Source of the DNA: Clostridia bacterium
GTDB taxonomy: Bacteria; Bacillota; Clostridia; TANB77; CAG-508
Direction: 5' to 3'
Assembly (NCBI GenBank): GCA_022798895.1
Contig: JAAWNJ010000001.1
Coordinates: 1-59,733, forward strand
DNA length: 59,733 nucleotides
A program made the position numbers and the translations under genes. The notes below the pieces were generated by a model. That model was not told where the DNA came from and searched no databases. It saw only the letters and a list, made by a program, of their open reading frames with translations. Position 1 is the stretch's first letter. Every line of letters begins with the position of its first letter. This document shows, one piece after another, positions 2,995 to 31,867 of the stretch.

Positions 2995-5900
2995 CTAAAA
3001 ATTAAATGCTGGCTCTCCTGTTTGCATATAATATTCGTCTGCTCCTGCTTGTACAACTTGGAATATTGCGTTTTTATCTGCTTTTCCTTCTACTTCTACT
3101 TTTATTCTTGAGTTTCTCATACCTTCTATTACTGCTTCTTTTACTTGTTGTGGTAAACTACTACTTACTTCTACATTGCTTTGTGTAGCTATTGCTCCAC
3201 TTATTTGACCATAATCTATAAATTGGTTTGTGTCTATTTTGAAATCGTTTGGATTAATAATAATTCCTTCTGTGCTTAGGTTATTCTTTAAAGAACCTAC
3301 CGCTGATAAAGCTAAGTTCTTTGCATTTTTTACCGCTTCTGGTATCATATCTTTAATACCTAATGTAAAACCTTCTCCGTTATAAACGCCTAGTTGTCTT
3401 GTCTTTTTTGATGGTGAATGTGATAACTGGGCTTGTGCTACACTTTGCAAAGAAGCATTTACCATATCTTTAGCTGCATTTTTTACATAGCCTATTGCAC
3501 TTCTAATACCATTTGCATAACCTGTTGCATTATCTTTTCCTTTTTGGTAGTAATCTCCTGCTCCATCATCAAGCCCTTTTGCTCCTGTATTTGCAACTTT
3601 ATAGTTTACATTATACATATTACCTGATTGAGCATTTATTGCATTTATTGCATCTTGAACTTTCTGTTTTGCTTCTGGTTTCATTTTTTCAAGTGCTTTA
3701 TTAAATGCTTTCTTTCCTTCTTCTGATAAATTGCCATATACTTCTCTTGTTTCTTCTGTCATTCCTGTTACTGCTATTGTAGAAGCTAATATTTTTGCTC
3801 TTGTTTCTTCTGGCAATTTAGATAATGCCTTATTATATTCTCCACTGCTCTTATTTGCCATACTTGCCCATTTTTCAATGTAAGGTTGGCTATTTATATC
3901 AACGTTTCCAATTATGGTATCTAAAATCATTTGCGTTGTTTCGTCAGTGCTTAACAATCTTTGTTCATATTCTGTAGCTGATTTAGAAGATAATTTTTTC
4001 CAAGCATCTATACTTTCTGGTGTCAAGTCCTCTACTGTTTTAGTTTGCTGTGTTAGAGTTCTTATTGTAGTTTCATTTATTTCTTTGCCTTTTTCTTTTG
4101 ATGTATCAGATATATCATCATAATATTTTGTCCAATCCTTTTTAGCCGTTTCAATCTTTTTGCCTGTTTTTTCTAACTCTTTTCTGATTTTTTCTTCTTC
4201 ATCTTTCGCTTTGTTATAGTTAATATCAGCCCAAGCTGTTTTCATACCATTAACTCCTGAAATTTGGTTAGCCAACTTTCCATTTGTTTCTTCAAGTATT
4301 TTATTCTTGTCTGCTTGTGCTTTTGCTGTATTTTCCTCTGCTTCTTTTAATTGCTTTTGCAATTCTAATTGATATTTAAGTTCTTCCTTATAGGTTTCTT
4401 GATATACTTCTAGTTTTATTTGTTCTTCTTTTTTCTTGATGTACTCATCTGTCTTTTTAACTAAGTCATCATAACTTTTTACTACTTTTCCATTTTGTGT
4501 AATTTGATTACCTGTTAGCTTATATTCTGTGCCTAATGCTTTATTTACATCATTTAAAATATATTCAACTCTTGTTTTATAACTATCTTTAACTTTTCCA
4601 TTGCTGTCTATCATGTCTTTCATACTGTCAATTTGTTCTTTAGCAACTTGTAAGTTGATGAGTTGACTATCTTTATTTTTATTAATAGCTTCTATTGTAG
4701 CTTCATGGCTTGATATTAATTGCTCGTGTCTCTTTTTTAAATCTTCAATAGCTTGTGAATTTGCTTGCAAGTTATTATTGTATCCAAGCATTGCCGAACC
4801 AGCACTTAGTACTAATCCTGTTAATGCTCCTACTGCTGTTCCTACTGGTCCGAATACTGAACCTAGCATTGCTCCACTTGCTGTAGCTCCTGCTATACTT
4901 CCTGTTAGTTTTGCAATAGCTTCTCCTGTTCCTATAGTTCCATTTGACAAATCTTGCATTGAACTATAAGTAAGTCCACATGAAGCAACTAAGCCTGCTA
5001 TTCCACCTGCTACTCTTACAGTTTTAGGTATTAAATCTAACATTCCTTGACCTGTTTTAGCTAATGCTTTTCCTACCCCTTCGCCATGTTTTATGTATGT
5101 TTTAAATTGGTCTGCTCCTATTTTTAGCCAAGTTCCAGTATTTTTTAGTCCTGTTCCAACTAAAGCTAATCCATTTTGAAAACTTGTAGTGGGAGTTATT
5201 GTTCCTGTTAGTACTCCACCTAAAGTTCTTACATATCCTATTAATTTTAATAACTTTGCTCCTATATATAGACCTACTAACAATTTTGCTATATTTAATA
5301 TCTTCTTTAAATTAGTATTTCCTTGACCTAATTCCCAAGTAATTTCTCCTGTTAATGGATTTACCTTTTTCGTAAAGCCCAACCATTCCATTATTTTATC
5401 TCTAATTTCAGTAGCTTTACTCTTTACTTTATCCATCATATTGTCATATTCTTTCATAGCATCAAGTAATCTTTGGTCTATTCCTCCAACACTTGCTCCT
5501 CCAGAACCACCACTTGTTTTATCTGGTAAAGTAATATTATTTATTTCATCAAAACCCATTAATTGTTTTTTAAGTTCTTTTGCCTTTCCGCTAGCTGTTC
5601 CTAAATCATCTGCTAAATCATCTGCTCCAACACCTGCACTTATATTTACATTTTGGTCTGATACTTCAAAACCAAATAGCTTTGCAAGCATTTTAAGAAG
5701 TTCATTTATTACCATCATAATTGCGTTTACATATGGAAGTATGTTGCCTAATAATCCTTGCCATAGATTACCCATATTTCTCTTAAATGCTGTTAATTGT
5801 GCATTAAATATCCTTAATTGGTTAGCTGGACTATCCATAGTTTTAGCAAAATCGCCATGTGCTAATGAGGCTTGCCTTAATACTATGATATATCTAGCAA

Positions 5901-6990
5901 TCATTTTTTCTGCTTGTGATAATTGTTTTGTACTTCTTTCAATACCTAATTCATCTAATAAAGGTTCTAGTGATTGTTGTGTTATATCTAATCCTAAATC
6001 TCTTAGTGGCTTAGTTTGTCCTGATAAACCTGCTCTTAGCTTTTGCATTGCATTTTCTGGGTCTATGTTATATAAAGAAGATAAGTCATATCCTAACTTC
6101 GTAAAGTTTTCTGATATCTTATAAGATGGTTCATCTCCTATTCCCATAGACTTAGACATAGCATTAAATAAAGCCTGATATTCCATGCTTTCTTCTATAT
6201 TTATCTTTAATTTGTCTGACAACTTTTCTTGAAAAGCCATAGCTTTTGTATAGTATTTGCTTGCTTCTCTATCTAAGTTTCCATATTGGTCAACAGTTTT
6301 TCCCATTGATACATTAAATAAGTTTTGTGTTTCTACAAAGTCTATACTTTCGGTTGTTGCTTCTTTAAAGAAACCTACTGCTTTTCTTACTCCTAATGCT
6401 ATCGTCCCTATACCTAATGCTGTTTTTAAGTTACTACCAAAATTAGATTTTTTAACTACATTTTTTGTGCTATTGTTAATATTTTTAAGTTCTTTATCAA
6501 ATTGTTTCAATGCGTCTGTTCCAAATGTTTTTTCAATATACTGTCTTAATTCTTGCATTGAGCCTTTTACATCTGTTGTTTCAATATTTATCATTTTTAG
6601 CATTTCTTTAAGTTTATTAGCTTTCGATGTATCACCAAAGGCTCTACATTGTACTTCTGTTTCTTTTAATTTCTCTGCTAAATTTAATATATCTTGTTCA
6701 GCCATTCCTATTTTTTGAGGAGTTTTTTCAATCTCTTGATTTACTTCTTTTATAGGAGCAGAATTAATATTCCTTATTTCACTAGCTAAATTAGCAAAAT
6801 TATTATTTAAAGTCATAAGGTATTTATTAGTTAGTATGCTTTGGTCTATTAGACTTTGAAAAGGTTTTAATGATATAACACCTTCTACAGAACTTCTTAA
6901 TGTCTTAACTTCGCTTATTAACTTGTCTATTCCACTAACTGCACTACCTGCATCTACTGCAATTTTATTCTCTAATGTATTTTCTGCCCT
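2995..6990 (-). CDS. Tape measure protein; proposed AGG start (ATG alternative at 6816)
   Basis: More than 1270 aa with coiled-coil and Gly/Ala-rich hydrophobic blocks, located between the chaperones and Dit. The frame is open 58 codons above ATG 6816, which has no SD. AGGAG + 9 nt + AGG at 6990 overlaps the upstream stop (TAAGG). Confidence 0.85.
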   Translation of the reverse strand, partial: RAENTLENKIAVDAGSAVSGIDKLISEVKTLRSSVEGVISLKPFQSLIDQSILTNKYLMTLNNNFANLASEIRNINSAPIKEVNQEIEKTPQKIGMAEQDILNLAEKLKETEVQCRAFGDTSKANKLKEMLKMINIETTDVKGSMQELRQYIEKTFGTDALKQFDKELKNINNSTKNVVKKSNFGSNLKTALGIGTIALGVRKAVGFFKEATTESIDFVETQNLFNVSMGKTVDQYGNLDREASKYYTKAMAFQEKLSDKLKINIEESMEYQALFNAMSKSMGIGDEPSYKISENFTKLGYDLSSLYNIDPENAMQKLRAGLSGQTKPLRDLGLDITQQSLEPLLDELGIERSTKQLSQAEKMIARYIIVLRQASLAHGDFAKTMDSPANQLRIFNAQLTAFKRNMGNLWQGLLGNILPYVNAIMMVINELLKMLAKLFGFEVSDQNVNISAGVGADDLADDLGTASGKAKELKKQLMGFDEINNITLPDKTSGGSGGASVGGIDQRLLDAMKEYDNMMDKVKSKATEIRDKIMEWLGFTKKVNPLTGEITWELGQGNTNLKKILNIAKLLVGLYIGAKLLKLIGYVRTLGGVLTGTITPTTSFQNGLALVGTGLKNTGTWLKIGADQFKTYIKHGEGVGKALAKTGQGMLDLIPKTVRVAGGIAGLVASCGLTYSSMQDLSNGTIGTGEAIAKLTGSIAGATASGAMLGSVFGPVGTAVGALTGLVLSAGSAMLGYNNNLQANSQAIEDLKKRHEQLISSHEATIEAINKNKDSQLINLQVAKEQIDSMKDMIDSNGKVKDSYKTRVEYILNDVNKALGTEYKLTGNQITQNGKVVKSYDDLVKKTDEYIKKKEEQIKLEVYQETYKEELKYQLELQKQLKEAEENTAKAQADKNKILEETNGKLANQISGVNGMKTAWADINYNKAKDEEEKIRKELEKTGKKIETAKKDWTKYYDDISDTSKEKGKEINETTIRTLTQQTKTVEDLTPESIDAWKKLSSKSATEYEQRLLSTDETTQMILDTIIGNVDINSQPYIEKWASMANKSSGEYNKALSKLPEETRAKILASTIAVTGMTEETREVYGNLSEEGKKAFNKALEKMKPEAKQKVQDAINAINAQSGNMYNVNYKVANTGAKGLDDGAGDYYQKGKDNATGYANGIRSAIGYVKNAAKDMVNASLQSVAQAQLSHSPSKKTRQLGVYNGEGFTLGIKDMIPEAVKNAKNLALSAVGSLKNNLSTEGIIINPNDFKIDTNQFIDYGQISGAIATQSNVEVSSSLPQQVKEAVIEGMRNSRIKVEVEGKADKNAIFQVVQAGADEYYMQTGEPAFNF

Positions 6991-7743: not shown

Positions 7744-8205
7744 TTAGTTATCACTTGTTGGTAACAATGCACTTACTTCTGTGCTATTTTTATCCACAAT
7801 ATTTTGTGGTGTTATTGAAAGTGTTGCTTCTACTGCACTATTTTGTGATACTGCATTCTTCCTTGTTGAAGCACTACCTTCAATTAAAGTACCCGTATTG
7901 TCTTGGAATACGATTAAAAATTCGTGTATATTTCCATCACAATATGGTTTAACTTTTGTAAAGTAGTTCTTTTCAGTATAGTTGTATAAAAAGTTTTGTA
8001 GTGTACTGTCTTGTCTACCTGCTACATATTGTTTAATTTTGCTTTTTAATGTAGTTACTTCAATTTGTTCTGGATCTGACCCACTTTCTGGTACATCTTT
8101 GATTTCTACTAGCTCCTCAAATGCTGTTGCACCTTTCTTTTTACCATAAAGCATAATTCCAATGTCACTTTGTCCTACTATTTCAATTTCGTTTTCTCCT
8201 GCCCT
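7744..8205 (-). CDS. Major tail protein; proposed AGG start
   Basis: ..EELVEIKDVPESGSDPEQIEVTTLKSKIKQYVAGRQD.. resembles siphovirus major tail proteins. The frame opens at 8211. AGGAGG + 9 nt + AGG at 8205. ATG 8154 has no SD. Confidence 0.75.
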   Translation of the reverse strand, partial: RAGENEIEIVGQSDIGIMLYGKKKGATAFEELVEIKDVPESGSDPEQIEVTTLKSKIKQYVAGRQDSTLQNFLYNYTEKNYFTKVKPYCDGNIHEFLIVFQDNTGTLIEGSASTRKNAVSQNSAVEATLSITPQNIVDKNSTEVSALLPTSDN

Positions 8206-8211
8206 TCGACA

Positions 8212-8631
8212 TTACCTCCTATAAATTATATTATTTTTTATTTTGCCTTCAAACTGTATAGCTTCTCTTGAAACATTTATATCTGCATTTTTTCTTGGGT
8301 CTGGGTCATTACCTTTAAATCTGTAATGTTCCTCAAACACTTTATAAACTAAATCTTCAAGTTCTTCTATAATAGTTTGTCTGGCTATTTTTTTACTTCC
8401 AACGGTCTTGTCCGTTGCATATATTTCTATTTCAATTTTAAAATTATATTTTTGCTCTGTGTATTTTAATGTTTCATCAATTATCGTTATTCTAGGTTTT
8501 TGTACTATTACTAGTGGAAATATCTTACTTTCAGTTGGCGCTGATTTTAGAACTTTAGGTGCATATTTAGATTTCTGTTCTATATATTGTTTTGTAAATT
8601 GATATAACTGATCATATAGTTCTGTTCTCCT
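8212..8631 (-). CDS. Hypothetical tail-completion / head-tail joining protein; proposed AGG start
   Basis: A 140-codon open frame fills an otherwise empty 414-nt gap. It has no ATG/GTG/TTG in the first ~100 codons, so it is absent from the ORF track. GAGAGGTG + 6 nt + AGG at 8631. Confidence 0.6.
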   Translation of the reverse strand, partial: RRTELYDQLYQFTKQYIEQKSKYAPKVLKSAPTESKIFPLVIVQKPRITIIDETLKYTEQKYNFKIEIEIYATDKTVGSKKIARQTIIEELEDLVYKVFEEHYRFKGNDPDPRKNADINVSREAIQFEGKIKNNIIYRR

Positions 8632-10247: not shown

Positions 10248-11267
10248 CTATCCGTTTGTTACTAATTTTGCCATTGGAATTGTTTTGTGTGGCATTTTTC
10301 TTTTCCAGCTTGCACTATCAAATAGTTCAGTATCATTATAAATAAGTTTCTTTGTGGTTGGCTCAAAACTAAATCCATTTGGGTGTAAAGCTTCCGTTAC
10401 TCTTGTGATAAGAGTATCTTGTCCACCATTTTTAGTTGGCTCTCTCATTGCTTCTACTGGATAACTTTGATTTCCTTTACCCATTAAGATACTTCCTGTT
10501 CCTAATAGATAAGTTGTATATTCTTTTTCTCCTGTTGCTGTTGCACTATCAGCTACTGGCATACCATCATCTACTATTACTAACTTTCCATTATAGTATC
10601 CTATGTTTAATGGTCTTGTAATTCCTGATGGGTCTGTATATTTACTATATTCTAGTAATTGTAAATTTTCTAATGTTTTGGCTACATTAGAGTGCATTAT
10701 AGCCATTGCAAAACTATCTTTGTGGTCTCCTAATGCTTTTGTAATCGCATCATTAAGAGTTGTTGCACCAATTTTATTGGCATCTGTTACGCTTGATCCA
10801 GTTGTTGCAACATTATAAATATGTTGTGATAACTCTGTATCTCCTGTAATCCCAAAAATACCATTTAACAAAGCTATAATTTGTCTTTGTCTATATTTGT
10901 TCCAATATTTTGCAACTCTACCTATAATATGACCCATTGGATCTGCTCCTTGTACATCATTAATAAAATCTCTTGCAGTCCAACCTTTCCATCTCTTATA
11001 AGCTGTACCGCTTTGTGTATCACCTTCTACTTCTTTTGTTGTTAAATCTGTTTTGCCATCATTCACTAATGGATCTTCATTATCAATATCCTTTAAGAAT
11101 GGTATTGTATATTGTAACCCTGCCCCTTGTAAGTTCGCTGTTAATTCAGCACTGTTTACTACTGCACCGCTTTCTAATAGTGCTGTTAATACTGGGTCTG
11201 GCTCTGCTCCCCATCTATTAACAAAAATTTCTTCATCGAATGGAATACCTAAATATGTTCCTGCCCT
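10248..11267 (-). CDS. Major capsid protein (SPP1 gp13-like as recalled); proposed AGG start
   Basis: The ORF track starts at GTG 11066, but 69 further upstream codons (..GTYLGIPFDEEIFVNRWGAEPDPVLTALLESGAVVNSAEL..) are clearly coding. AGGAGG + 9 nt + AGG at 11267. Confidence 0.85.
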   Translation of the reverse strand, partial: RAGTYLGIPFDEEIFVNRWGAEPDPVLTALLESGAVVNSAELTANLQGAGLQYTIPFLKDIDNEDPLVNDGKTDLTTKEVEGDTQSGTAYKRWKGWTARDFINDVQGADPMGHIIGRVAKYWNKYRQRQIIALLNGIFGITGDTELSQHIYNVATTGSSVTDANKIGATTLNDAITKALGDHKDSFAMAIMHSNVAKTLENLQLLEYSKYTDPSGITRPLNIGYYNGKLVIVDDGMPVADSATATGEKEYTTYLLGTGSILMGKGNQSYPVEAMREPTKNGGQDTLITRVTEALHPNGFSFEPTTKKLIYNDTELFDSASWKRKMPHKTIPMAKLVTNG

Positions 11268-11948: not shown

Positions 11949-13625
11949 TTAACCCTCGTTAGCTGAGATATTTTTATCTATACTTTGATTTTCCTTTTTC
12001 TCTGCTTTATCATCTGTTTTTTTGCTACTCATATTTGTGTCGTTACCATCTCCTATAACATTTGATACTGCTTTTTTCCAAAGGTCATCTCCATAATATT
12101 CTTTTGCCTTCTCAAATACTTCATTAGGGTCATTGAATAATCCTATAACTGTAAATGCTATATCTGGTGGGCATTGTGCTGACATTAAATTCATAAGTGC
12201 TTGTGTCTTTACTAATATGTTGTCTGATTTGTTTCTTGTAAATTTAATATCTATATCACTTAATTTTAAACCTTTTAAATTTTCTGATTTGCCTTTTAAT
12301 TTTTCATTGCATATATTTAAAATCAATTTTAAAAACTGTCTTTCTGGCTTTTTAAATGAAAGTTCATCTTGTTTTGCTCTTTCATCTGCCATTGTCCAAC
12401 CTTCTCCTAGTAGTCTTGCTTGTCCTGTATCTCCTCCAGAAGGTTTATCATTTAGTCTTGGAATACCTACTATTGTTAATACATCATTATATATTCCATC
12501 TTTGTATGTCTTAACTTGTGAATTATCCATTTTTTGACCTAACAATTTTATGTCTGCTGGCTTGCTTGGGTCTGACGTTGATATCTCTACTGCACCAAGT
12601 TTTATTATTTCTTTATGCCTATCTATATCTATTTGTTGATTTATATATACTAATAAACTTTGTACAAATTGTTCTATATCGTCCAATTCGTTACTTGTTA
12701 TTCTATTTATAGCGTTTAACTGTGATATAACTAATTCTATAAGCCCAAGTCTATTTTTATTTAAAGGGTATTCTATAATTCTAAAGCCCTTAATTTGTAA
12801 TGGATATGGGTTAGGTAATTTCTTTTTTAAACCTAATTTATTCTTTTTAAATAATGGTTTTAGTTGCAATCTTCCATATTGTGTAGTTAATATCATTATT
12901 TTATCTTCACAATAAATTGTATATTCTTGATATTCTCCTATTGGTGGTGTATCCTGCGTTGTTATCTCATTACTAAAATTTTGGATATAAAATGAAAATA
13001 ACTGCTCTTCTGTAATTCCTGTACTGTATACTACGCCTGTTCTTTTAGGGTCTGGTGTAGATATTTCAAATGGTGCTTCGTCTTCATCTTCTGGGTTATC
13101 TTGGTCAGCCCATCTATACCCTGTACCTATTTTGTACCACCATTCTGAAAGTTCTTTATCTTTACTAGATTTATCTTCACTTTCCATAAATTTGTTAAGT
13201 AAAGATATTTTAGGGTTTGTATGTTCTGTTTCTTTCTCTCCCTTTTGCACATATTGTACTGGGTCTCCAAAAACATAAGATTTTTTAAATTCTACTATTT
13301 CATAAGCGTGGTTTACTAGGATTTTATTATTTATTTCTGGTCTTATCTTTTTAGTTTTTTCTAATATGGGCTGAATACCTTTATAGAAATTATCAAGATA
13401 CTCTATATCTGAAACATTTTGATTATGTATTGCCAATATTTCTGGCATTTTTTCTATTATATTTTCTGGTGTAAGTTCATCTTTTTGTAAGTTACAATAG
13501 ATAACTTTTCTTCCACTAAAACGATTTCGTTCATTTTCTGTAGCTGATTTTTCTTCATTTTCTTGTGTTACTTTGTCTATTGTTTCTTGAATTACATCTT
13601 TTTTAGTTTCTTCGTTTTCTTCCCT
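11949..13625 (-). CDS. Portal protein (SPP1 gp6-like); proposed AGG start
   Basis: Portal-like core (..IEYLDNFYKGIQPILEKTK..). The ORF-track start (GTG 13733) runs through a strong hairpin. TGGAGGA + 6 nt + in-frame AGG at 13625. No canonical start for the next ~60 codons. Confidence 0.8.
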   Translation of the reverse strand, partial: REENEETKKDVIQETIDKVTQENEEKSATENERNRFSGRKVIYCNLQKDELTPENIIEKMPEILAIHNQNVSDIEYLDNFYKGIQPILEKTKKIRPEINNKILVNHAYEIVEFKKSYVFGDPVQYVQKGEKETEHTNPKISLLNKFMESEDKSSKDKELSEWWYKIGTGYRWADQDNPEDEDEAPFEISTPDPKRTGVVYSTGITEEQLFSFYIQNFSNEITTQDTPPIGEYQEYTIYCEDKIMILTTQYGRLQLKPLFKKNKLGLKKKLPNPYPLQIKGFRIIEYPLNKNRLGLIELVISQLNAINRITSNELDDIEQFVQSLLVYINQQIDIDRHKEIIKLGAVEISTSDPSKPADIKLLGQKMDNSQVKTYKDGIYNDVLTIVGIPRLNDKPSGGDTGQARLLGEGWTMADERAKQDELSFKKPERQFLKLILNICNEKLKGKSENLKGLKLSDIDIKFTRNKSDNILVKTQALMNLMSAQCPPDIAFTVIGLFNDPNEVFEKAKEYYGDDLWKKAVSNVIGDGNDTNMSSKKTDDKAEKKENQSIDKNISANEG

Positions 13626-13778: not shown

Positions 13779-13988
13779 CTAAAAATAATATTCAAATTGA
13801 TTTACATAATTTTTAGGTTTGTCTGGATTTTCTACTTTGTATCTATCACATTTTGTTACATATATAACATATTGTCCCCAATAGTCTTTTTCCCTTGATA
13901 CTTGTTTCATGTAATCTTTTTTTATATTTCCATATCTATGTTTAAAACACTCTTCCCAATGTTCACATTTCCAACAAATATTCTTCCT
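13779..13988 (-). CDS. Cys-rich small protein (69 aa); proposed AGG start
   Basis: Open frame ..KNICWKCEHWEECFKHRYG..CDRYKVENPDKPK.. fills the portal-upstream gap. GAAGGTGAT + AAA + AGG at 13988. Confidence 0.45.
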   Translation of the reverse strand, partial: RKNICWKCEHWEECFKHRYGNIKKDYMKQVSREKDYWGQYVIYVTKCDRYKVENPDKPKNYVNQFEYYF

Positions 13989-14283: not shown

Positions 14284-14560
14284 AACTCCTCCTATTTTCC
14301 TCTAATCTAATTCTATAACAATGCTCAAGACAATCGTAACCTATTTCAACGGTTATACCATATTTAGCTTTAAGTAAAAATAATTTTGTTTCTATATAGC
14401 TTGTAGTTCTTAGTTCTGTTTCTCTAATCTCATTGTCATATATGCTAATTTCACTTTTTTTAAACGAAATTAACTCATTGAACTTTTGGTCTATAATATC
14501 ACATACTTCTTCATATCTTTTTAATTGTTCCTCATTCATATATTTAAACTTTGCTATCAT
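14243..14560 (-). CDS. Hypothetical protein
   Basis: 105 aa; ATG overlaps the TerL stop. Confidence 0.5.
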   Translation of the reverse strand: MIAKFKYMNEEQLKRYEEVCDIIDQKFNELISFKKSEISIYDNEIRETELRTTSYIETKLFLLKAKYGITVEIGYDCLEHCYRIRLEENRRSYGIRRSNKKCKKI

Positions 14561-15939
14561 ATTCCTAACAAACTCCTATTCAATGGTTTTGGTTTATTTG
14601 GCTTTCCTCTTTCGAGTATTATCTCTGTTACAAATAATGTTGCACTGTCTGGAGCGTCATCATTTCTATTTGGGTAATCAAAACTATATGTAGTTAAGTT
14701 TTTCATAAACCTACCATAGTCACTATTTGGCTTATAATCTTTCTTATGTTTAAAATATAGCATTTTCCTAATTGTACCTTGATTTTGATTTATTCTTCTT
14801 TCCTTAACCATTGTGCTATACTTTTCTGTAATGTTACAATAAAATATTCCTCTTTTTTCTAGCATTTCATCTAACAATGTTTTTAGTGAAGTATCTGTAT
14901 TGTTTTCTATCGCTAACCAAGTAATATGGTGTTCTTCTATCTTTGCAACTATTTCATCATATAAATCTGTAATTCCCTTTTTCTTAAAGATACAATCTAT
15001 CATATAGTAGTTTTTTCCATCTGTTTTGCATATTGGCATAGAAATATTATCTCGTCCTTTTCTTGTTGTATCTAATACCGCTAATGAATAATTGCTATAT
15101 GCTGGTGTTCCATCTTCATTTACAGGAAGTCTGTCAAAGTGATTTAACAATTCATCTGCGAAGTCAAGTCCTTCTGCTGGTATCGGGTCTTGCTGATATA
15201 CACAAGCCCATTGAAAATCATCTGTTACATCTCTTAATTGTCTTGCTTCTTCTGTTGTCATTACTGCTTCACAAGTTGTTTCATCGTTTTCATCTAGTAA
15301 TGGCACTCTTATTACTACTGTCGAACCGTCTTTACTTTCCCATACATACTTAAATTGTTTACTTGGAACTAACTCTGATATTGTTTCTCTATCTTGTATA
15401 ATTCTATTTAGTATATCTTCTGGTGACCACATTGTACCTGCAAATACAAATTTTGTACTATCTCCATCACGTCTATTTATCCAATTTCCAGTCCATTGAT
15501 TATATATATCTTGATGTTTTTTGCTGTCTGTTGCCTCTTCTGCTCCTTTGGTCATATCATCAAATATCATTGCTTTATTTGCTCTTTTACCAGTAACCTG
15601 TCCGTCTCTTGAAACTGCTATATGTGAATGTGCTACATTTGTGTCTTTTAATTTCCAGTTATACACTTCTTTTGTTGAAAATGGGTTATCTCCATACTGT
15701 TGATATTCTAGAAATACATCTCTATATCTCTTATCTGTTATTATTTCTCTTACTGTTCTACTAAAACCTGCTACTAGGTCATCTGAATAAGATAATCTTA
15801 TTATTGAGTTATTTCTATCTACTCCAAACAACCAAGCCGTCCAATATGTAAGTGTTACTGATTTACCTGTACTAGGTGGATAAGAAGCCACTATATACTT
15901 TAATTTATCTGAAAAGGTAATTTTATTTAAGTAAAACAA
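14557..15939 (-). CDS. Terminase large subunit
   Basis: Walker A ..YPPSTGKS.., ..MIFDDMTKG.., and a C-terminal nuclease-like part ..LAVLDTTRKG..NRNDDAPDS... Only a TTG start without SD; Walker A lies ~24 residues from the predicted N-terminus. Confidence 0.8.
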   Translation of the reverse strand: MFYLNKITFSDKLKYIVASYPPSTGKSVTLTYWTAWLFGVDRNNSIIRLSYSDDLVAGFSRTVREIITDKRYRDVFLEYQQYGDNPFSTKEVYNWKLKDTNVAHSHIAVSRDGQVTGKRANKAMIFDDMTKGAEEATDSKKHQDIYNQWTGNWINRRDGDSTKFVFAGTMWSPEDILNRIIQDRETISELVPSKQFKYVWESKDGSTVVIRVPLLDENDETTCEAVMTTEEARQLRDVTDDFQWACVYQQDPIPAEGLDFADELLNHFDRLPVNEDGTPAYSNYSLAVLDTTRKGRDNISMPICKTDGKNYYMIDCIFKKKGITDLYDEIVAKIEEHHITWLAIENNTDTSLKTLLDEMLEKRGIFYCNITEKYSTMVKERRINQNQGTIRKMLYFKHKKDYKPNSDYGRFMKNLTTYSFDYPNRNDDAPDSATLFVTEIILERGKPNKPKPLNRSLLGI

Positions 15940-16028
15940 AAATGGCTTTAAAACGCATTTACGTCCGTTCTAGTACCCTTTTAGTATTGTTCATTTCCAT
16001 ATATTCAAAAAAATGTTCTAGCGATCTT

Positions 16029-16316
16029 CTACCGAGCAAATGCCATACACTTTTCATATAGTTTGTAATAGTCTGCTTGATATTTAATTTCACATTTTAT
16101 AATTCTACTTTGCGTTGCTGGTAGTAAAAATGTAATTGCATATCTACAAGCATTCAATTCAATTTCTTGCCTATTCTTTGCATTTTTACCAGTATCAAAA
16201 TACTCTAATAATAACTGATACAATGCTTCACACATTGTCAAATATGAGTATTCATCTGGTACTTTACCTTTTAATGCTGTTATTATCTCTTTTATTGTTT
16301 TTTCATAATCTTGCCT
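16029..16316 (-). CDS. Hypothetical 95-aa protein upstream of TerL (small-terminase candidate by position); proposed AGG start
   Basis: The frame opens right after TAA. AGAGGTG + 8 nt + AGG at 16316. The ORF track starts 25 codons later. Confidence 0.5.
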   Translation of the reverse strand, partial: RQDYEKTIKEIITALKGKVPDEYSYLTMCEALYQLLLEYFDTGKNAKNRQEIELNACRYAITFLLPATQSRIIKCEIKYQADYYKLYEKCMAFAR

Positions 16317-17301: not shown

Positions 17302-17547
17302 TTACCCTAATTCCTCCAATCTTCTCTTATCTCTTTCATTTGTTGGAAAGCCTACTATTTCTACTAAACTGTACTTTGGTAAATCTAGTGCTATTTCTAT
17401 TTTCCTTGCTCTTACTGAACCTATTTGTATTGAACCATTTATTATATTTGACACATTTTGCTTAGGTACTTGCAATTTATCTGCCAACTGCTGTTGTGTC
17501 ATATTCTTTTTTTGTAATATTAGTTTTATATATGTTCCTATTTGCCT
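17302..17547 (-). CDS. XRE-family HTH regulator; proposed AGG start
   Basis: The ORF track starts at MTQQQLADKL, inside the HTH. Extending to AGG 17547 (GGAGGTG + 7 nt) restores xQIGTYIKLILQKKNMTQQQLADKLQV, a typical XRE N-terminus. Confidence 0.7.
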   Translation of the reverse strand, partial: RQIGTYIKLILQKKNMTQQQLADKLQVPKQNVSNIINGSIQIGSVRARKIEIALDLPKYSLVEIVGFPTNERDKRRLEELG

Positions 17548-17855: not shown

Positions 17856-18233
17856 ACTATTTCTCCTAACTATATTCTCTATGCAATGATATAAGGGTTT
17901 CGTCTTTCGACCTCGTGGACAATTATACTTTTATCGTATAACTTGTTCCTTTACCACCATTCTTTTTAATATCACTGCATACAAAATATAAACACTATGT
18001 AATGATATATTTGTTTTTTGCTTACGCAAGGAAAAGAATGCTTTTATTGTACAATTATTATGCTATTCTAAAACAGATAACCTAAGTATTTTACATATAT
18101 TACTACATACTATTGGCTTATATTTAGCGAGCATAAGCTAAACTCGACATAGTATTGATTGTTTGTAGTGCATTTTATAGTAATCAACTAACTATAAAAG
18201 ACTTCCCTAGCTTCTATGTAAAGCTTTCGTGGG

Positions 18234-18326
18234 TGGCATCGGAGAAGGGGAATTGCACCCTTTATTCTTCCATCGGCTTTCATTTCCTAGTCCCCGTTGG
18301 AGTGCTACTTTTACACTATCTCCAAT
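18234..18326 (-). ncRNA. tRNA-like RNA with expanded anticodon region, CCA-ended
   Basis: Acceptor ATTGGAG/CTCCGAT (one G-U). D arm AGTG-TAAAAGTAG-CACT. T arm AAGGG-TGCAATTC-CCCTT. Discriminator G + CCA. 38 nt replace the anticodon/variable region (stem AACGG/CCGAT, 17-nt loop). Confidence 0.45.
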
Positions 18327-18331
18327 ATATA

Positions 18332-18427
18332 TGGCACTCTGGCGAATAGACCTATCTAGAATGATACATAGGGCGAGTTATGTTCTCCCATTATTCCCTA
18401 ATATTATCTATTCTCTTAATCCAGAGT
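18332..18427 (-). ncRNA. 96-nt CCA-ended tRNA-like RNA
   Basis: Perfect 7-bp acceptor ACTCTGG/CCAGAGT + G + CCA. Inner 7-bp helix GAATAGA/TCTATTC. Internal GGGAG..CTC(G)CCC stem with the loop sequence ..AACATAA.. (contains CAT). Confidence 0.4.
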
Positions 18428-18514
18428 ATTAGGTTTGTGTAGTTTTCCTTCTATGAGGGATATTACAATACCCCTCTGCATTGACAGGTAATTACCTTAT
18501 TCAATATATTCTAC

Positions 18515-18588
18515 TGGGTGCAGGTAGCAGTAACGCTCTGCTCGCTTCGCCTAAGGAGGACGATATGTTACTTCTACACCAACCTGCA
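18515..18588 (-). tRNA. Atypical tRNA with anticodon CCU (reads AGG)
   Basis: 74-nt cloverleaf. Acceptor TGCAGGT/ACCTGCA. D stem GTGT/ACAT. Anticodon stem TCGTC/GGCGA with loop CTCCTTA. Variable loop AGCG. T stem AGCAG/CTGCT. Discriminator C + CCA. D loop AGAAGTA lacks GG, and T loop AGCGTTA lacks TTC. Confidence 0.6.
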
Positions 18589-18593
18589 ATATA

Positions 18594-18669
18594 TGGTTGC
18601 TGAGTGTCGGAATTGAACCGACTTTTTGTAGCTTATGAAACTACTAAGATACCTTACCTACCACTCGCA
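18594..18669 (-). tRNA. tRNA with CAU anticodon (Met/Ile2-type), irregular acceptor
   Basis: T arm GTCGG-TTCAATT-CCGAC. Anticodon arm GTAGT-TTCATAA-GCTAC. Encoded A + CCA. Acceptor TGCGAGT/ACTC(A)GCA has a bulged A. Lies 5 nt (tatat) upstream of the CCU tRNA. Confidence 0.55.
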
Positions 18670-19244
18670 ATATAAAACAAATATATTATTAGAGTTTCCC
18701 CTTACAATTAATTATCTATCTTAATTATTCAACCACTAGGAAGATAAATCTGAGCATAAAGTTGCGACCTCTATACTTTTTACCCCTTTTCAAAGTTCCT
18801 TTTACAAAACCTTTACCCTACATACGATTGATTACGTATAAATTCCACCCATCATTCAGATATTGATGTTATTTTCCTAATAACAAAATTTGCTCTGTTT
18901 TTATCTCGTTTGGGCTACTTTAACCTAGTTATGTCTTATAGTTCCTTTTCAAGAACTTCACGAGAAATAGTCTTACTTAGCATTACCTACATTGCTTTAT
19001 ATTTGCTAAATATAAGTTATAGGCTTATTGACTACTAGTCCGTCTATTGCGACTACGACAACTCTAGTGTTTTATTAAGCGATAATATTTGCACATTATC
19101 CAGTATTGGTTTTAACACCTACTCTACATACATTACTGTACATAGAAAGCAACCTTACAAACGTATCCGTCTGTCTAACTACTTATCGGATAATTCCAAG
19201 CCACATGATATTGTGGTTTAGCACTTGGGTAATAATATATTTAT
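18670..19244 (-). ncRNA. ORF-free structured RNA segment between tRNA-like genes
   Basis: No SD-preceded ORF on either strand, and visibly higher G+C than the flanks. Many nested helices, e.g. CCAAG..CCACA-ATATCA-TGTGG-CTTGG (19196-19228), TATCCG..CGGATA, and GATAAT-GTGCAAAT-ATTATC. Confidence 0.35.
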
Positions 19245-19323
19245 TGGAGCTTTCTATAGGATTTGAACCTACATTAAAGGTTTAATTACTATTCCAATGT
19301 GTTTCCATTTACACTAAGAAAGC
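19245..19323 (-). ncRNA. tRNA-like RNA lacking a canonical anticodon arm
   Basis: Perfect acceptor GCTTTCT/AGAAAGC + T + CCA. D arm GTGT-AAATGGAA-ACAC. Canonical T arm GTAGG-TTCAAAT-CCTAT. The 25-nt anticodon region forms only an AT hairpin. Confidence 0.45.
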
Positions 19324-19426
19324 ATATACAGGAATTGCACTATTCCAACTAGTATGTAGAGGCTTAATTTGCCTCTAGGCTGTGCATTTCCAGAAACCTT
19401 TTCTACAACTTGGTAGATAGGTAATT

Positions 19427-19567
19427 TGTGTAGGTAATAATTTGCACATTACATGTTCCCTCTCACGCACAATTTAACCGACAGTCACCGAATTTAATCT
19501 CGTGTCACATTGCTAACTACTAAGAGGAAACTTACAGTTTAGCGTCTACCTATTCCGCCACTACACA
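19427..19567 (-). ncRNA. Expanded tRNA-Tyr-like RNA (~141 nt)
   Basis: Acceptor TGTGTAG...CTACACA. Class-II-type D arm GCGG-AATAGGTAGA-CGC. CTGTAAG loop (GTA) on a bulged stem. ~65-nt insert. T-like arm GTAATG-TGCAAAT-TATTAC. No encoded CCA. Confidence 0.35.
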
Positions 19568-19688
19568 TCTTTGCAAGCCTAATCACTTGCTAGGAATTGA
19601 AGCCCTCATATTTTATATAAATATTACTTGCCACCTATTTATTTCACAATTCTTTAACTATATAAAGATAGTTAGTGATTGTTAAAAA

Positions 19689-21025: not shown

Positions 21026-21481
21026 CTAACAATATAATTTAGCCCATTTAGTATTTTCAAAAGTCTTAGATAATGTCTTGTTTACTCTAGCACCTCTCAT
21101 AAATATATATGGATTAACTAAGTAATTGTTCTCTTTACCTGTTCTTACTTTGGCTAATATCTTTTTATCTACTAATTCGTCTATTGCTCTTACAATGCTT
21201 GTATTAGATATAAAATCACATCTTCTTTTAATGTCATCTAATGTCAATTTAGATCCATTTTCATAGGCTAAATAACCTGTATCATACCTAACATATTGTA
21301 ATAGCTCTAAACATACTGACATTTCTGTAGAAGATAGTTTCTCTCTTGCCAACACACTAGCTGATTTCAGAAAGAACTTAACATACATTTCTGTTTTTTG
21401 TATTTCATCTGTATTTTTTAGAAAATCTATTGACTTTTTTCTTAAAACTCTATCTCCTTCATTAAGTTCTACGTAATTCCT
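21026..21481 (-). CDS. RepL-like / winged-helix DNA-binding protein; proposed AGG start
   Basis: ..STEMSVCLELLQYV..NTSIVRAIDELVDKKILAKV..YLVNPYIFMRG.. The frame opens right after the upstream TAG. AGGAGG + 8 nt + AGG at 21481. ATG 21388 has no SD. Confidence 0.6.
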   Translation of the reverse strand, partial: RNYVELNEGDRVLRKKSIDFLKNTDEIQKTEMYVKFFLKSASVLAREKLSSTEMSVCLELLQYVRYDTGYLAYENGSKLTLDDIKRRCDFISNTSIVRAIDELVDKKILAKVRTGKENNYLVNPYIFMRGARVNKTLSKTFENTKWAKLYC

Positions 21482-21493
21482 TCTGTTTTCCTC

Positions 21494-21898
21494 CTAATAA
21501 TCTTTATCATAGTAATCGTCGTCATCTTCTAATGGTAACTCATAAATTCCACTAACAAATTCTTGTATCTTTTTCCATCTTTGCTCTCTATCTTCTATCT
21601 TTTCTTCTAGTTCTTTAATTCTATTTTCTTTTGCTTTTAATTTCTTGTCTAATTTCTCTATCTCTGCTTCTTTATTATGCTTTGCTATTCTTTTCATTAA
21701 AGTATCGTCAAAATGTACTATTTTCTTTTTTTTACAATTCTGCACATCAAAACACATTCTTGCTCTATCTGTTGATATGTATTCTCCTCCAAAACCTATA
21801 ATAGACTTGTATTCCATTATTTCTGGTTCTAAAGTTGTTCCTACTAATATTCCTGTAACATATTCTAAATTCTCATCATCATATATTAAAATATTCAT
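21494..21898 (-). CDS. Hypothetical coiled-coil protein
   Basis: GAGGAGG + ATG (MNILIYDD..). The ORF-track start further upstream lies in the repeat region. Confidence 0.55.
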   Translation of the reverse strand: MNILIYDDENLEYVTGILVGTTLEPEIMEYKSIIGFGGEYISTDRARMCFDVQNCKKKKIVHFDDTLMKRIAKHNKEAEIEKLDKKLKAKENRIKELEEKIEDREQRWKKIQEFVSGIYELPLEDDDDYYDKDY

Positions 21899-21912
21899 AT
21901 ATTCCTCCTCAA

Positions 21913-21967
21913 CATGTGTCAAATTTGGTATATGAAACCCACTTTCATGTGTCAAATTTGGTATATG
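21913..21967. repeat. Two copies of 22-bp direct repeat catgtgtcaaatttggtatatg (period 33)
   Basis: Exact copies at 21913-21934 and 21946-21967. Each carries TTGACA on the minus strand, upstream of the 21898 gene. Confidence 0.8.
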
Positions 21968-22173
21968 TTCATTTTCTATATTCCTTTACTCTCCCTAAGT
22001 ACACAGCTTTATTTTTCACCTTTCAGTCCTCTTATTTCTATAATTGGGGATACAAAAAAGTCTCTCACCTTTATTGGGGCAAAAAAATAGGCTACTAGGC
22101 AGGTGACCAAACAAGCCACCTACTTAGTACCCTTGCAAGAGTATTTATTTTTATTTAATTATATCAAATCAAT

Positions 22174-27457: not shown

Positions 27458-28654
27458 CTAGTTTTTTGCCTTAAAATTATATATAGGCTTTATTATTTTT
27501 TGTATTTCTACTGTATCTTGTATATTATCTATTATCTCTTGCATAGGTTTATATACAAATGGTGCTTCATCTATTGTTTCTTCTACTACACTTGTTGTAT
27601 AAATATCTTTCATACTTTCTTTAAAATCTTCTAGCTTAAATATTTCTTTTGCTTTATGTCTTGACATTATCCTTCCTGCTCCGTGTGGCGCTGAATTATT
27701 CCAATCTTCATTTCCTTTTCCTATTGCTATAATACTTCCATCTCTCATATTAATTGGAATTAAAACTTTTTCTCCTTTTTTAGCTGATATAGCACCTTTA
27801 CGAACTATATTATCTTCAAATGATATATAATTGTGTATTGTTTCAAAATATTGTTGGTTATTTAATATTCTGTATTTTTTTAATATTTCTATTGCTATAT
27901 GTCCTCTATTTATAGTTGCATAGCTTTGACATATCTTCATATCGTGTAAATACATTTCTCCATATTTGCCTTCTAAATAACATAATTCGTTTGGTAAATT
28001 AGGCTTATTGTCTTTATATTCTTTTTCTAGTTCTTTTAATGCTTTTTGTATTTCTGCTTTTCTTCCCTGCTCTTTGTATGTTTTGATTATTTCTTCTTTC
28101 TTTTGATACATTTCTTCTTTTCCAGAGCATAGTTCTATTGCTAGATTTTGATAATAGTCTGCTACCTGCTTTCCTAAATTTCTACTACCTGTATGAATTA
28201 CTAAATATTTATTACCTTCATCATCAATGTCTACTTCTATAAAGTGATTTCCACCGCCTAGAGTTCCTATCGCTCTATTAAATTTCTTTGTCTCTTTTAA
28301 TTCTCTTAGGCAATATAATTCATTTATCGGCTCAAATTCTAATAGTTTATGTTCTCTTATATTTCTTCCTGCTGGTATGCAATTATTTATTACTTCATCT
28401 AGTTTTTGTAAATCTAAATCTATCTTTCCTAATTCTACACATAGCATACCACACCCAATATCTACTCCAACTATATTAGGTATTACTTTATTACCCAAAT
28501 CTGCTGTAAAACCAATTACACAGCCTTTTCCTGCATGTACATCTGGCATTATTCTTACTTTGCAATCTCTAAAAGGTTCTTGTTGTAGCAACAACTCTAT
28601 TTGCTCTACCGCTTCTTGTTCTATATTATCTGTGAATATTTTTAAATCTTTCAC
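27458..28654 (-). CDS. rtcB: RtcB-family 3'-phosphate/5'-hydroxyl RNA ligase
   Basis: 398 aa with the motifs MPDVHAGKG, DIGCGM, GGGNHFIE, HTGSRNLG and APHGAGR. Confidence 0.85.
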   Translation of the reverse strand: MKDLKIFTDNIEQEAVEQIELLLQQEPFRDCKVRIMPDVHAGKGCVIGFTADLGNKVIPNIVGVDIGCGMLCVELGKIDLDLQKLDEVINNCIPAGRNIREHKLLEFEPINELYCLRELKETKKFNRAIGTLGGGNHFIEVDIDDEGNKYLVIHTGSRNLGKQVADYYQNLAIELCSGKEEMYQKKEEIIKTYKEQGRKAEIQKALKELEKEYKDNKPNLPNELCYLEGKYGEMYLHDMKICQSYATINRGHIAIEILKKYRILNNQQYFETIHNYISFEDNIVRKGAISAKKGEKVLIPINMRDGSIIAIGKGNEDWNNSAPHGAGRIMSRHKAKEIFKLEDFKESMKDIYTTSVVEETIDEAPFVYKPMQEIIDNIQDTVEIQKIIKPIYNFKAKN

Positions 28655-30264: not shown

Positions 30265-30894
30265 CTAATCAAAATCTTTTACTTTTATTTTAACTATAAC
30301 CCTATTACCACATCTATCTTGCATTTCTACAACTGTTCTACCAACTATACCTTCACTATTAGCAGTACCTATCTTTGATTTTGGTTTTGTTTTAACATAG
30401 TCTACCGCTTCCTGTATTGTTCCTTCTAAAACTATTGGTACTGCTTCTATATTGAAATAATTTGCTATATCTTCTACACTTTCTCTAGGTTGCCAATTTC
30501 CTGCTATCATTACATCAAATAAGATAAAGTCTTGATTATCTCTATATAAGCCACCATTCTGTATTTTAGCACCATATCCCTCGCCTACTAATACTACTTC
30601 TGTTGCTCCAAATTTTTGCTCGAATAGTTGCTCGTTTACTTCTCCACCAAATAACTCATTTAATCTATTTACTAATTCTGCTGGTATTTGTGCCTTATCT
30701 GTTCTTCCATAAAAACTTACTCTATGTCCGTCCCAGTGTATTCTTATATTTGTTCCATCTATCTTTTCTGTAAATTGCCATTTATTGTCTTTTAAATATT
30801 CTACTGTTTTATTTCTATATTGTCCTTCTATTAATTTTTTTGTTTTTTCATCTCTTTCAAAAAGAGTTTCTATTTTATGATATTCTTTTAACAT
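30265..30894 (-). CDS. ATP-dependent RNA ligase family protein
   Basis: 209 aa. Nucleotidyltransferase motif I EKIDGTN, ..VLVGEGYG.., and ..VIVKIKVKDF (motif V-like). Confidence 0.7.
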   Translation of the reverse strand: MLKEYHKIETLFERDEKTKKLIEGQYRNKTVEYLKDNKWQFTEKIDGTNIRIHWDGHRVSFYGRTDKAQIPAELVNRLNELFGGEVNEQLFEQKFGATEVVLVGEGYGAKIQNGGLYRDNQDFILFDVMIAGNWQPRESVEDIANYFNIEAVPIVLEGTIQEAVDYVKTKPKSKIGTANSEGIVGRTVVEMQDRCGNRVIVKIKVKDFD

Positions 30895-31165: not shown

Positions 31166-31867
31166 TTATTCCTCCTCTGATTTCCAACTTCCGTCTTTTT
31201 GTTCCTTTAATTCTATTGTTTTAAGGCTCTTGCCTTGTTTTAATTGCTGTATCATAGCACTTATTTTATTCATATCTGTTTCGCTTCTATGTTCAATGAC
31301 TACTGGTGACTGTGCTTCTATCATTCCAAATTCTGCTTTACTTCTAAACATAGTTGTTATATTATCTATTTCTTTTAATTGTGCTGATGTAAGTGTTGTA
31401 TCTGTTAAATAGTCGTTTATTCGCATTATTACATCTTGCATACTTTCATCTGGCGACATTAAGTAATTATTATATGTTGCTGTTGAAATATCAGCAAATG
31501 CACAAAAACTGCCTTTTGAAGGTGGATATTTTACCTTTTTATTTATTGCTACTATTGCTTGTCTGTAATATTTAAATACTATGTTTAATTCTTCTGCTGT
31601 GTATTTTAAAGGTTGTCCTATTAAGTTGTGTGGTCTTAATATCTCATTTATTTCTATTGTACTTAAGCCTTGTACTTCTTCTTTTACACTTAATTGCTCT
31701 GCTATCTCATTTAATCTAGTTTCTAATTTTTGTGGTAATTCCTTTTTATATTCTTCTAATATGCTTTTCTCTCCTGCTTTTACTAACATTTCTTTCTTTT
31801 GCTGTTCTACTATTTTCTTATCTTTTGTTTCTAAACTTTCTTTATATTGTTTTTTCCTTAAAATCAC
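31166..31867 (-). CDS. Terminase small subunit-like protein (start GTG 31867 or AGG 31858)
   Basis: ..KYPPSKGSFCAFADISTATYNNYL..ITTMFRSKAEFGMIE.. resembles TerS HTH-type proteins. GGAGA abuts the GTG but lies 9 nt before the in-frame AGG. Confidence 0.55.
   Translation of the reverse strand: MILRKKQYKESLETKDKKIVEQQKKEMLVKAGEKSILEEYKKELPQKLETRLNEIAEQLSVKEEVQGLSTIEINEILRPHNLIGQPLKYTAEELNIVFKYYRQAIVAINKKVKYPPSKGSFCAFADISTATYNNYLMSPDESMQDVIMRINDYLTDTTLTSAQLKEIDNITTMFRSKAEFGMIEAQSPVVIEHRSETDMNKISAMIQQLKQGKSLKTIELKEQKDGSWKSEEE

Follow-up and report, generated by a model that had tools for sequence, protein, structure and literature searches.

The window analyzed here, a 59,733-nucleotide (nt) stretch of Clostridia bacterium DNA (contig JAAWNJ010000001.1 of assembly GCA_022798895.1; all positions are those of the whole stretch), has a G+C content of 29.5% and carries a minus-strand prophage that extends from approximately 1.1 to 45 kb. 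At positions 18515 to 18588, on the minus strand, lies a 74-nt candidate tRNA with a CCU anticodon, tRNA(CCU), and comparison with its relatives suggests, with good probability, that it is a phage tRNA dedicated, wholly or mainly, to the initiation of translation at AGG codons. On comparative evidence, AGG sits at the start-codon position of 13 prophage genes and, in relatives, of about a third of genes, and the acceptor ends of the tRNA family look initiator-type, not elongator-type; the original prediction, which was made from the letters of the window alone and proposed an initiator for AGG-start genes, thus finds support. A wider reading, which is favored with somewhat less assurance, is that phages of gut Clostridia possess a natural orthogonal initiation system, in which a second, non-CAU initiator tRNA, probably carrying Arg or formyl-Arg, would recognize its start sites by four-base AAGG:CCUU pairing and would serve to initiate roughly one in three phage proteins, the principal virion proteins among them, rendering virion production dependent on the phage tRNA.

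AGG at the Start-Codon Position of Phage Genes

The view that AGG is a used start codon is based on its association with Shine-Dalgarno (SD) sequences, on exchanges of start codons between orthologues, on the N-termini of matches to PHROG profiles and on the alignment of the capsid protein. Relatives of the prophage were collected through the large terminase, which yielded 19 IMG/VR contigs and 10 contigs from metagenome-assembled genomes (MAGs), cited below by locus numbers such as L002 where necessary; the MAG contigs are labeled uncultured Clostridia, Clostridium sp., Clostridiaceae or Lachnospiraceae, and several isolate names suggest gut catalogues. In the prophage itself, the 13 genes, all on the minus strand, present an SD sequence followed, after a spacer of 4-9 nt, by A-AGG (a hyphen here precedes the AGG codon), with a canonical start that is either absent or located far inside the frame.

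The gene for the major head protein (10248-11267) has the leader AAAGGAGG taatgtcgA-AGG GCA and offers no canonical start for 69 codons. Residues 9-338 of its product correspond to positions 11-342 of the 351 of profile phrog_247, its AGG coincides in the alignment with the Met start of both the fecal phage MT836094 protein and phiCD38-2 gp07, and the capsid sequence R-AGTYLGIPFDEE matches M-SKTYLNYPFDDD of MT836094 residue for residue. In L002 and L005 the capsid leader reads AAAGGAGG-AATTTTA-AGG and contains no ATG at all. The portal gene (11949-13625) starts within ATGGAGGAG atagA-AGG, its AGG is kept in L001, L002, L005 and L014, and residues 10-548 of the protein cover positions 17-538 of the 547 of phrog_64. 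The gene for the major tail protein (7744-8205; phrog_158) has the same leader as the capsid gene, AGGAGGTAATGTCGA followed by AGGGCAGGA, and the tape measure gene (2995-6990) reads AGAGGAG tgaaaagtA-AGG GCA, with a first ATG that lies 60 codons into the open frame and with residues 9-702 corresponding to positions 10-663 of phrog_1535. Further AGG starts in the tail module belong to a tail protein (1158-2570), whose residues 2-362 match positions 2-366 of phrog_6616, and to a phrog_1194 gene (2579-2983) with the leader TTAGGAGGT aatagA-AGG.

The remaining AGG-start genes are smaller or belong to other modules, and several of them reveal what orthologues employ at the same codon. For the 139-codon gene at 8212-8631, which lacks a canonical start until codon 97, the aligned codon is ATG in L002, L014 and L015, GTG in L005 and AGG in L018. 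The XRE-type helix-turn-helix regulator (17302-17547; residues 2-45 corresponding to positions 7-50 of the 67 of phrog_1468) has orthologues that carry, at the exact codon, ATG in seven loci, TTG in three and AGG in L002. A small gene at 13779-13988 keeps AGG in L001, L002, L005 and L011, the L014 orthologue having an ATG one codon downstream of the aligned position, and the gene upstream of the large terminase (16029-16316) retains AGG in eight distinct orthologous leaders whose SD-to-AGG spacers differ. In the early region, orthologues of the gene at 21026-21481 have AGG with C at position -1, the gene at 21494-21985 displays an SD sequence and A-AGG, and that at 31166-31858 has AGG in L015 as well. 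Besides the leaders with an exchanged codon, there are 28 other distinct ones in which AGG stays as the spacer changes, and no orthologue has AGA or CGN at the aligned start codon, although AGA is 5-8 times more common than AGG within these genes. When genes are called heuristically, the late module has 11 AGG starts (one of them doubtful) versus nine ATG starts, the early region four (one doubtful) among 49 calls, and the host genes none among seven.

The SD association is also apparent when all codons are compared. Among the open frames of the prophage, 17 of 76 AGG codons are SD-associated, against a fraction of 0.046 for other sense codons (p = 7e-8) and 0.24 for ATG. In the related clade, after de-duplication, AGG reaches the highest fraction of all codons (114/350, or 0.33), with ATG at 0.12 and a background of 0.059, and in 29 independent loci outside this clade, which carry the same type of tRNA, it is second only to ATG (45/349, or 0.129, and 0.148, respectively; background 0.052). 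Control sets behave differently: in 46 contigs that match the tRNA search pattern without holding the tRNA (GC 0.52), AGG stands at 0.066, ATG at 0.096 and the background at 0.060; in phiCD38-2, a Clostridium phage with a GC of 0.31 and a capsid of the same family, but with no such tRNA, the AGG count is 5 of 77 (p = 0.37), with ATG at 0.153 and a background of 0.052; and in Roseburia phage Jekyll there is a weak excess (12/117, p = 0.017; ATG 0.138, background 0.051).

The distribution of SD-to-start spacing is alike for AGG and ATG, and the base that precedes the codon is not. An A at position -1 was counted at 64 of 79 AGG starts versus 69 of 160 ATG starts, at 93 of 114 versus 64 of 155 in the related clade, and at 37 of 45 AGG starts in the independent loci; the corresponding AGG counts are 31 of 92 in the pattern-match control contigs, two of five in phiCD38-2 and one of 12 in Jekyll. 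The original prediction had described this A as invariant; at about 81-82% of AGG starts across the sets, as against 41-43% of ATG starts, it is nearly, but not strictly, so. Within the clade, AGG starts are more frequent downstream of the tRNA (61/170) than upstream of it (18/88; p = 0.01), and in L033 and L101 the tRNA lies approximately 25 nt upstream of an AGG-start gene that is the first of several large AGG-start open reading frames. The enrichment of AGG starts in the late module and downstream of the tRNA is consistent with the phage RNA cluster licensing the translation of virion genes.

Two other explanations for the position of these AGG codons were considered and rejected. A +1 frameshift from an out-of-frame ATG in the capsid leader (at UUU AGG U, as in Ty1) is incompatible with the L002 and L005 leaders, which are devoid of ATG, and with the presence of the same SD-AAGG layout in 12 other genes. 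An enrichment of AGG as a by-product of purine-rich SD repeats is countered by the lack of enrichment of GGA, GAG, AGA and AAG, by the absence of an excess in phiCD38-2, by the fact that the Jekyll excess comes without the -1 A, and by orthologue exchanges that are codon-exact. No sign of an alternative genetic code or of stop recoding was seen.

The CCU tRNA and Its Family

The candidate tRNA reads UGCAGGU-UG-GUGU-AGAAGUA-ACAU-A-UCGUC-CUCCUUA-GGCGA-AGCG-AGCAG-AGCGUUA-CUGCU-ACCUGCA-C-CCA. As had been predicted, it forms a perfect 7/4/5/5 cloverleaf with the anticodon loop CUCCUUA and an encoded CCA; all 21 stem pairs are standard, position 37 is U, the T loop is AGCGUUA and the discriminator is C73. 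A cloverleaf scan of both strands of the window returned this perfect structure only, and none in 60 dinucleotide shuffles, which excludes a chance origin. Single-sequence folding was uninformative (minimum free energy z-score of -0.96, not significant), as is usual for tRNAs. The tRNA-finder and covariance-model check that accompanied the original prediction gave a divided answer, since ARAGORN in default mode does not call the tRNA and the Rfam tRNA model RF00005 (gathering threshold of 29 bits) leaves it unmatched even at E<=10, while ARAGORN at a relaxed threshold (-ps90) calls it tRNA-Arg(cct), and a covariance model of its own family (R1), built from 33 relatives with the window copy left out, recovers it as the top match in the window (59.6 bits, E 8e-13). 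The exact 17-mer of its anticodon arm has no match in IMG/VR.

All related loci that span the region have a tRNA(cct), at the matching place in an RNA cluster upstream of the packaging genes; where the locus has a ROOL RNA the tRNA follows it directly, and in loci with no ROOL match it occupies the closest equivalent slot. A degenerate family pattern, in which position 1 was left free, retrieved 28 further distinct, ARAGORN-confirmed sequences from IMG/VR, and the loci thus retrieved outside the terminase clade number 29; in these independent loci the CCU tRNA is mostly the only tRNA on the contig, and ROOL is missing. The family alignment (A3) consists of 34 distinct sequences, window copy included. 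It supports the cloverleaf by covariation, as 94% of its cells are paired versus 67% in shuffles and 37-46% in slid controls, and 18 of the 21 pairs have changed on both sides; none of 500 shuffles reaches the observed values.

Several features of the alignment are those of an initiator. The anticodon is CCU throughout, U33-C34-C35-U36-U37 being present in 34/34 sequences, so that the predicted U37 is constant. The acceptor pairs noted in the original prediction, U1-A72, G2-C71 and C3-G70, are indeed those of the window copy, and G2:C71 and C3:G70, which in initiators are determinants for the formyltransferase, recur in all 34 members. A72 is likewise universal, and A73-CCA is found in 33 sequences, C73 of the window copy being the deviation. 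Position 1 faces A72 as C.A in 16 sequences, A.A in eight, G.A in six and U-A in four, which leaves 30 of the 34 without a 1:72 pair, and it avoids U: even among the 28 pattern-derived sequences, where it was unconstrained, it pairs with A72 only once. The 11:24 pair is A:U in 17 members, G:C in three and U:A in 14 (R11:Y24 in 20/34), and G30:C40 is conserved in 33/34.

The elbow, which had been described as non-standard on account of the AGCGUUA T loop with A54 and G55, does carry these bases, and the alignment indicates that it is a coherent, covarying variant rather than a degraded one, given that positions 18:55 are G:U in 26 members and A:G in eight, the window copy among them, and are never mixed, that G19:C56 is constant (34/34), and that A54:U58 of the window copy is a swap for U54:A58. 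The predicted absence of G18G19 from the D loop is thus correct for the GG dinucleotide and incorrect for G19. Members with A18:G55 (T loop UGCAA.., D loop AG.AG..) include the window copy, L001:1102-1176, L036, L050, L079 and L088. They are missed systematically by the Rfam tRNA model, which gives the other relatives 36-57 bits, and by default ARAGORN, the window copy included; functional tRNAs with such an elbow are probably under-annotated.

As to ancestry, the sequences point in two directions: one subgroup has its best full-length matches among cultured phages in phage tRNA-Met(CAU) genes that show an initiator-like U1-A72, A11:U24 and GG/CC, and another subgroup has D and anticodon arms that match a phage tRNA-Arg(UCU). 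It is of note that an intact tRNA(CAU) sibling adjoins the CCU tRNA in L030 (L030:42-117), with the loop CUCAUAA and the same UGC...GCAACCA acceptor end that is found in a tRNA(CAU)-like sequence beside the window copy (see below); the CCU tRNA possibly originated next to an initiator-like tRNA-Met that a phage carried.

Proposed Charging and Mechanism

In the proposed mechanism, the tRNA would be transcribed together with the tRNA-Thr, ROOL and tRNA cluster that heads the packaging and structural module, excised by RNase P and 3' processing, and charged, most probably with arginine. In bacteria, arginine identity depends on A20, which is the main determinant, as well as on C35, U36, G2:C71, C3:G70 and A/G73 (PMC9976931). 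The amino acid is probably Arg because the family presents C35, U36, G2:C71, C3:G70 and A73 (C73 in the window copy); MetRS, for its part, should reject a CCU anticodon. The unpaired 1:72 of most members would then keep the charged tRNA from EF-Tu and Pth and make it a potential formyltransferase substrate. A 1x72 mismatch is known to promote formylation and to disfavor EF-Tu and Pth (PMC6393288), and the elements recognized by the formyltransferase are the 1-72 mismatch and R11:Y24 (PMC9976931); handling by Fmt and IF2, rather than by EF-Tu, is argued for by the combination of an unpaired 1:72 with G2:C71, C3:G70 and A73.

IF2 would subsequently place the tRNA in the P site of the 30S subunit at SD-positioned AGG codons, where U37 could add a fourth pair with the A that precedes the codon (AAGG:CCUU). 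In E. coli, A37U/G variants of tRNAfMet favor mRNAs with the complementary base at -1, and this complementarity raises translation (PMC10018350). The AGG/CCU pairing should be functional in principle, since reporters with an AGG start are driven by an E. coli initiator engineered to carry a CCU anticodon; of 12 engineered pairs, this one ranked first in most of the strains tested and first or second in the others (bioRxiv 10.64898/2026.04.16.719103). AGG-start genes would be poorly translated in the absence of the phage tRNA, tying the output of virion proteins to the RNA cluster of the phage. It is also conceivable, and compatible with this, that phage initiation could continue if host tRNA-fMet were depleted or cleaved.

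A number of observations weigh against an initiator role. The window copy is the most deviant member of the family, whose strongest initiator features it lacks: it has a Watson-Crick pair at U1-A72, C73 as discriminator, U.G at 30:40 and U:A in place of R11:Y24 at 11:24, and its elbow is of the A18:G55, A54:U58 variety. In E. coli, initiator mutants in which 1:72 is paired are formylated less well and are able to elongate (PMC6393288). The anticodon stem of the window copy reads G:C, U.G and C:G at 29:41, 30:40 and 31:39, in accordance with the predicted absence of the GGG/CCC signature and of A73, and three consecutive G:C pairs are missing from almost the whole family, the full GGG/CCC stem occurring in L002 only (1/34). 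Such pairs serve P-site selection and passage of the IF3 checkpoint. The L004-type body resembles an ordinary phage tRNA-Arg(UCU), and initiator ancestry is not established. Position 20 is U in most members, including the window copy, and A in L001 and L002 only, so that efficient arginylation is not assured. Lastly, the co-occurrence statistics ignore kinship, and the large control set is higher in GC. The window copy is nonetheless taken to be functional, on the basis of its perfect stems, of compensatory elbow changes and of 13 intact AGG-start genes.

Alternative Roles for the tRNA

The alternative that survives best, although it is unlikely as such, is a dual function, which is a refinement of the initiator role rather than a true alternative to it: with its U1-A72 pair and C73, the window copy would initiate at SD-positioned AGG codons and elongate at internal ones, in the manner of partly formylated initiator mutants or of mitochondrial tRNA-Met. 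The window copy may indeed double as an elongator, as E. coli initiator mutants with a Watson-Crick 1:72 pair can elongate, and incomplete formylation splits an initiator tRNA between IF2 and EF-Tu (PMC6393288); four family members carry U1-A72, and the 13 intact AGG-start genes need an initiator in any case. There would be little need for the second function, however, because internal AGG is rare in the phage.

A role as an ordinary elongator, a tRNA-Arg(CCU) that supplements decoding of the rare AGG codon while the AGG starts are otherwise served or mis-assigned, is improbable. The relaxed ARAGORN call is of this type, C35 and U36 are Arg determinants, the paired U1-A72 of the window copy makes EF-Tu binding plausible, and the L004-type D and anticodon arms are 92% identical to those of the tRNA-Arg(UCU) of Pakpunavirus phages. 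An elongator, however, leaves unexplained why 30 of the 34 members lack a 1:72 pair and why position 1 avoids U, and the invariant U37 (34/34) differs from the A37 of both the E. coli argW tRNA-Arg(CCU) and the tRNA-Arg(UCU) of phage PaoP5. A20 is absent outside L001 and L002, the AGG starts are supported independently, and many phages carry this tRNA as their only one. AGG accounts for 12-16% of internal AGG plus AGA codons in phage genes versus 25% in the seven host genes of the window, a small host sample; this lower internal use makes a role as codon supplement unlikely, and disfavors what the original prediction had offered as the trivial alternative to initiation.

The least probable alternative, that the family is an AGG initiator whose window copy has lost its function in a prophage that is turning defective, could draw on the four conserved positions at which this copy is an outlier (paired 1:72, C73, U30.G40 and A54:U58), on its being missed by the Rfam tRNA model, on the bulged acceptor stem of the neighboring CAU tRNA and on the replacement of the tRNA-Trp of the closest relatives by other sequence, but none of the 21 stem pairs is broken, the elbow has changed in a compensatory way (A18:G55 in eight members and the A54:U58 swap), the copy is the top match of the family model, and the AGG-start structural genes are full-length open frames in which the family-wide domains are intact.

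Comparison with Known Systems

The closest comparison for an initiator at AGG codons is the bacterial initiator tRNA-fMet (E. coli metZ, L031:588-664). As in the latter, most family members have no Watson-Crick pair at 1:72 and possess G2:C71, C3:G70 and A72-A73-CCA, and the acceptor stem of several of them (CGCGGGG...CUCCGCAACCA) hardly differs from that of metZ; similarities extend to the D arm of L001, to R11:Y24 in 20/34 members and to the anticodon loop C32 U33 C34 N U36 N A38, and the cognate codon, by sequence, likewise occupies SD-positioned start sites. The differences lie in the anticodon, CCU instead of CAU, which would not make a MetRS substrate, in U37 where metZ has A37, in the reduction of the three G:C pairs to G30:C40, in the A18:G55 elbow of some members and in the U1-A72 and C73 of the window copy. 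Elongator counterparts, namely E. coli argW and phage tRNA-Arg(UCU), have G1-C72 and A37, and the family differs from them at both positions.

Engineered initiators, such as metY with a CCU anticodon tested on AGG reporters or the amber initiator with a CUA anticodon, also start at the complementary non-AUG codon from an initiator scaffold with an altered anticodon. These laboratory constructs, however, retain A37 along with the entire body of the E. coli initiator, whereas the phage system would be natural and phage-encoded, would match U37 to the -1 A, and would serve about a third of phage genes. Quadruplet pairing between position 37 and the base 5' of the start codon has been reported to raise initiation (Hollerer and Jeschek 2023, PMC10018350), but the natural E. 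coli pair is A37:U(-1) and its effect is modest, while here U37 is invariant and the -1 A present at ~81% of AGG starts.

Two further systems involve tRNAs that are supplied by phages. Suppressor-tRNA stop recoding of late genes in gut phages (PMC10879173) resembles the present case in that a phage tRNA alters reading and that expression depends on it; it acts, however, at termination and elongation on UAG or UGA, whereas here the predicted event is initiation on a sense codon, with no stop reassigned. Evasion of host anticodon nucleases has also been proposed for phage tRNAs (van den Berg et al. 2023, PMC10264068); initiator tRNA-fMet is among the targets cut by VapC-type toxins (PMC10264068). 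An altered anticodon loop could similarly outlast host tRNA cleavage, and the phage encodes RtcB and an RNA ligase, but the replacements in that hypothesis have the same anticodon, whereas here the codon is changed and the phage genes have co-evolved.

All natural initiator tRNAs that are known to us carry CAU, and non-AUG starts are read by the same tRNA with a mismatch. A search of the full-text literature, a scope that leaves subscription-only papers outside, found no description of a natural AGG initiator, and engineered ones only. If the initiator reading is true, the CCU tRNA would be the first natural non-CAU initiator, a new anticodon with a co-evolved start codon, and the genetic code would have been altered naturally at initiation instead of termination, representing a new mode of viral recoding. 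It would also add a layer to phage gene control, in which translation of virion genes is licensed by a phage RNA, and would provide synthetic biology with a ready-made, evolved orthogonal pair of initiator and start codon with a matched -1 context. Gene finders that are limited to ATG, GTG and TTG would truncate or miss the capsid, portal, tail and tape-measure genes of these phages, affecting virome annotation and protein databases, and the A18:G55 elbow would denote a class of functional tRNAs that eludes standard detectors.

The RNA Cluster and Neighboring Features

An integrase gene (46526-47872) adjoins host tRNA-Gln and tRNA-His genes. The CCU tRNA lies inside a 1.8-kb gap without coding sequence (17856-19688), which immediately precedes the packaging and structural genes, and within this gap it is preceded on the same strand by a tRNA-Thr, a ROOL RNA and a weak tRNA(CAU). 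This 1.8-kb region has no blastn match among cultured phages. A promoter-like TTAACA-17-TATAGT at 19657-19685 (minus strand), from a site scan, lies upstream of the cluster and is a lead only, as promoter and terminator counts in the region do not exceed those of shuffles.

The first member of the cluster, tRNA-Thr(AGU) at 19245-19323 on the minus strand (ARAGORN; Rfam 44.1 bits), has the anticodon AGU, the other Thr tRNAs of related loci having UGU. The ROOL RNA (18671-19252, minus strand; Rfam RF03087, 311 bits, E 1e-70) has tRNA genes on both sides, at distances of ~0-8 nt by model boundaries, in the window as in L002:473-1043, L004:8153-8717, L005:6655-7253 and L014:1649-2215, an arrangement which suggests that it is freed from its precursor by tRNA-processing enzymes. 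ROOL was ruled out as an obligatory partner of tRNA(CCU), as it is missing from 19 independent tRNA(CCU) loci. The tRNA(CAU)-like sequence at 18594-18669 (minus strand; Rfam 29.6 bits, R1 50.8 bits, Met(cat) in ARAGORN at -ps85) has the acceptor end UGC...GCAACCA with one bulged A in the 3' acceptor strand, and is possibly a decayed phage initiator or Met tRNA. On the other side of the CCU tRNA, ~217 nt at 18234-18453 (minus strand) take the place of the tRNA-Trp of the closest relatives (L001 and L018), and relaxed ARAGORN reports within them a tRNA-Pro(ggg) of 93 nt (18234-18325), whose extra arm is long and to which the family model gives 23 bits.

The large terminase gene (14557-15969, minus strand) has a TTG as its only start, with no SD sequence; PHROG terminase profiles begin approximately 45 positions in, no AGG is available, and the N-terminus may be split or recoded. 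Two early-region genes, at 27458-28654 and 30265-30894 on the minus strand, encode RtcB (Pfam, 2e-61) and an RNA ligase (PF09414, 7e-19); such a tRNA-repair pair hints at conflict with host defenses that cleave tRNAs.

Outside the window, a porcine 'Inovirus sp.' record (MT135291.1; L128:3594-3666) carries a tRNA with G1xA72, G2:C71, C3:G70 and U37 and with the anticodon CGU in the loop CUCGUUA, so that versions of the scaffold with other anticodons may exist; no ACG-start genes were seen on this 5-kb record. The structural region of L002 contains, at L002:9359-9541, two tandem skipping-rope RNAs (Rfam RF02924, 59 and 63 bits).

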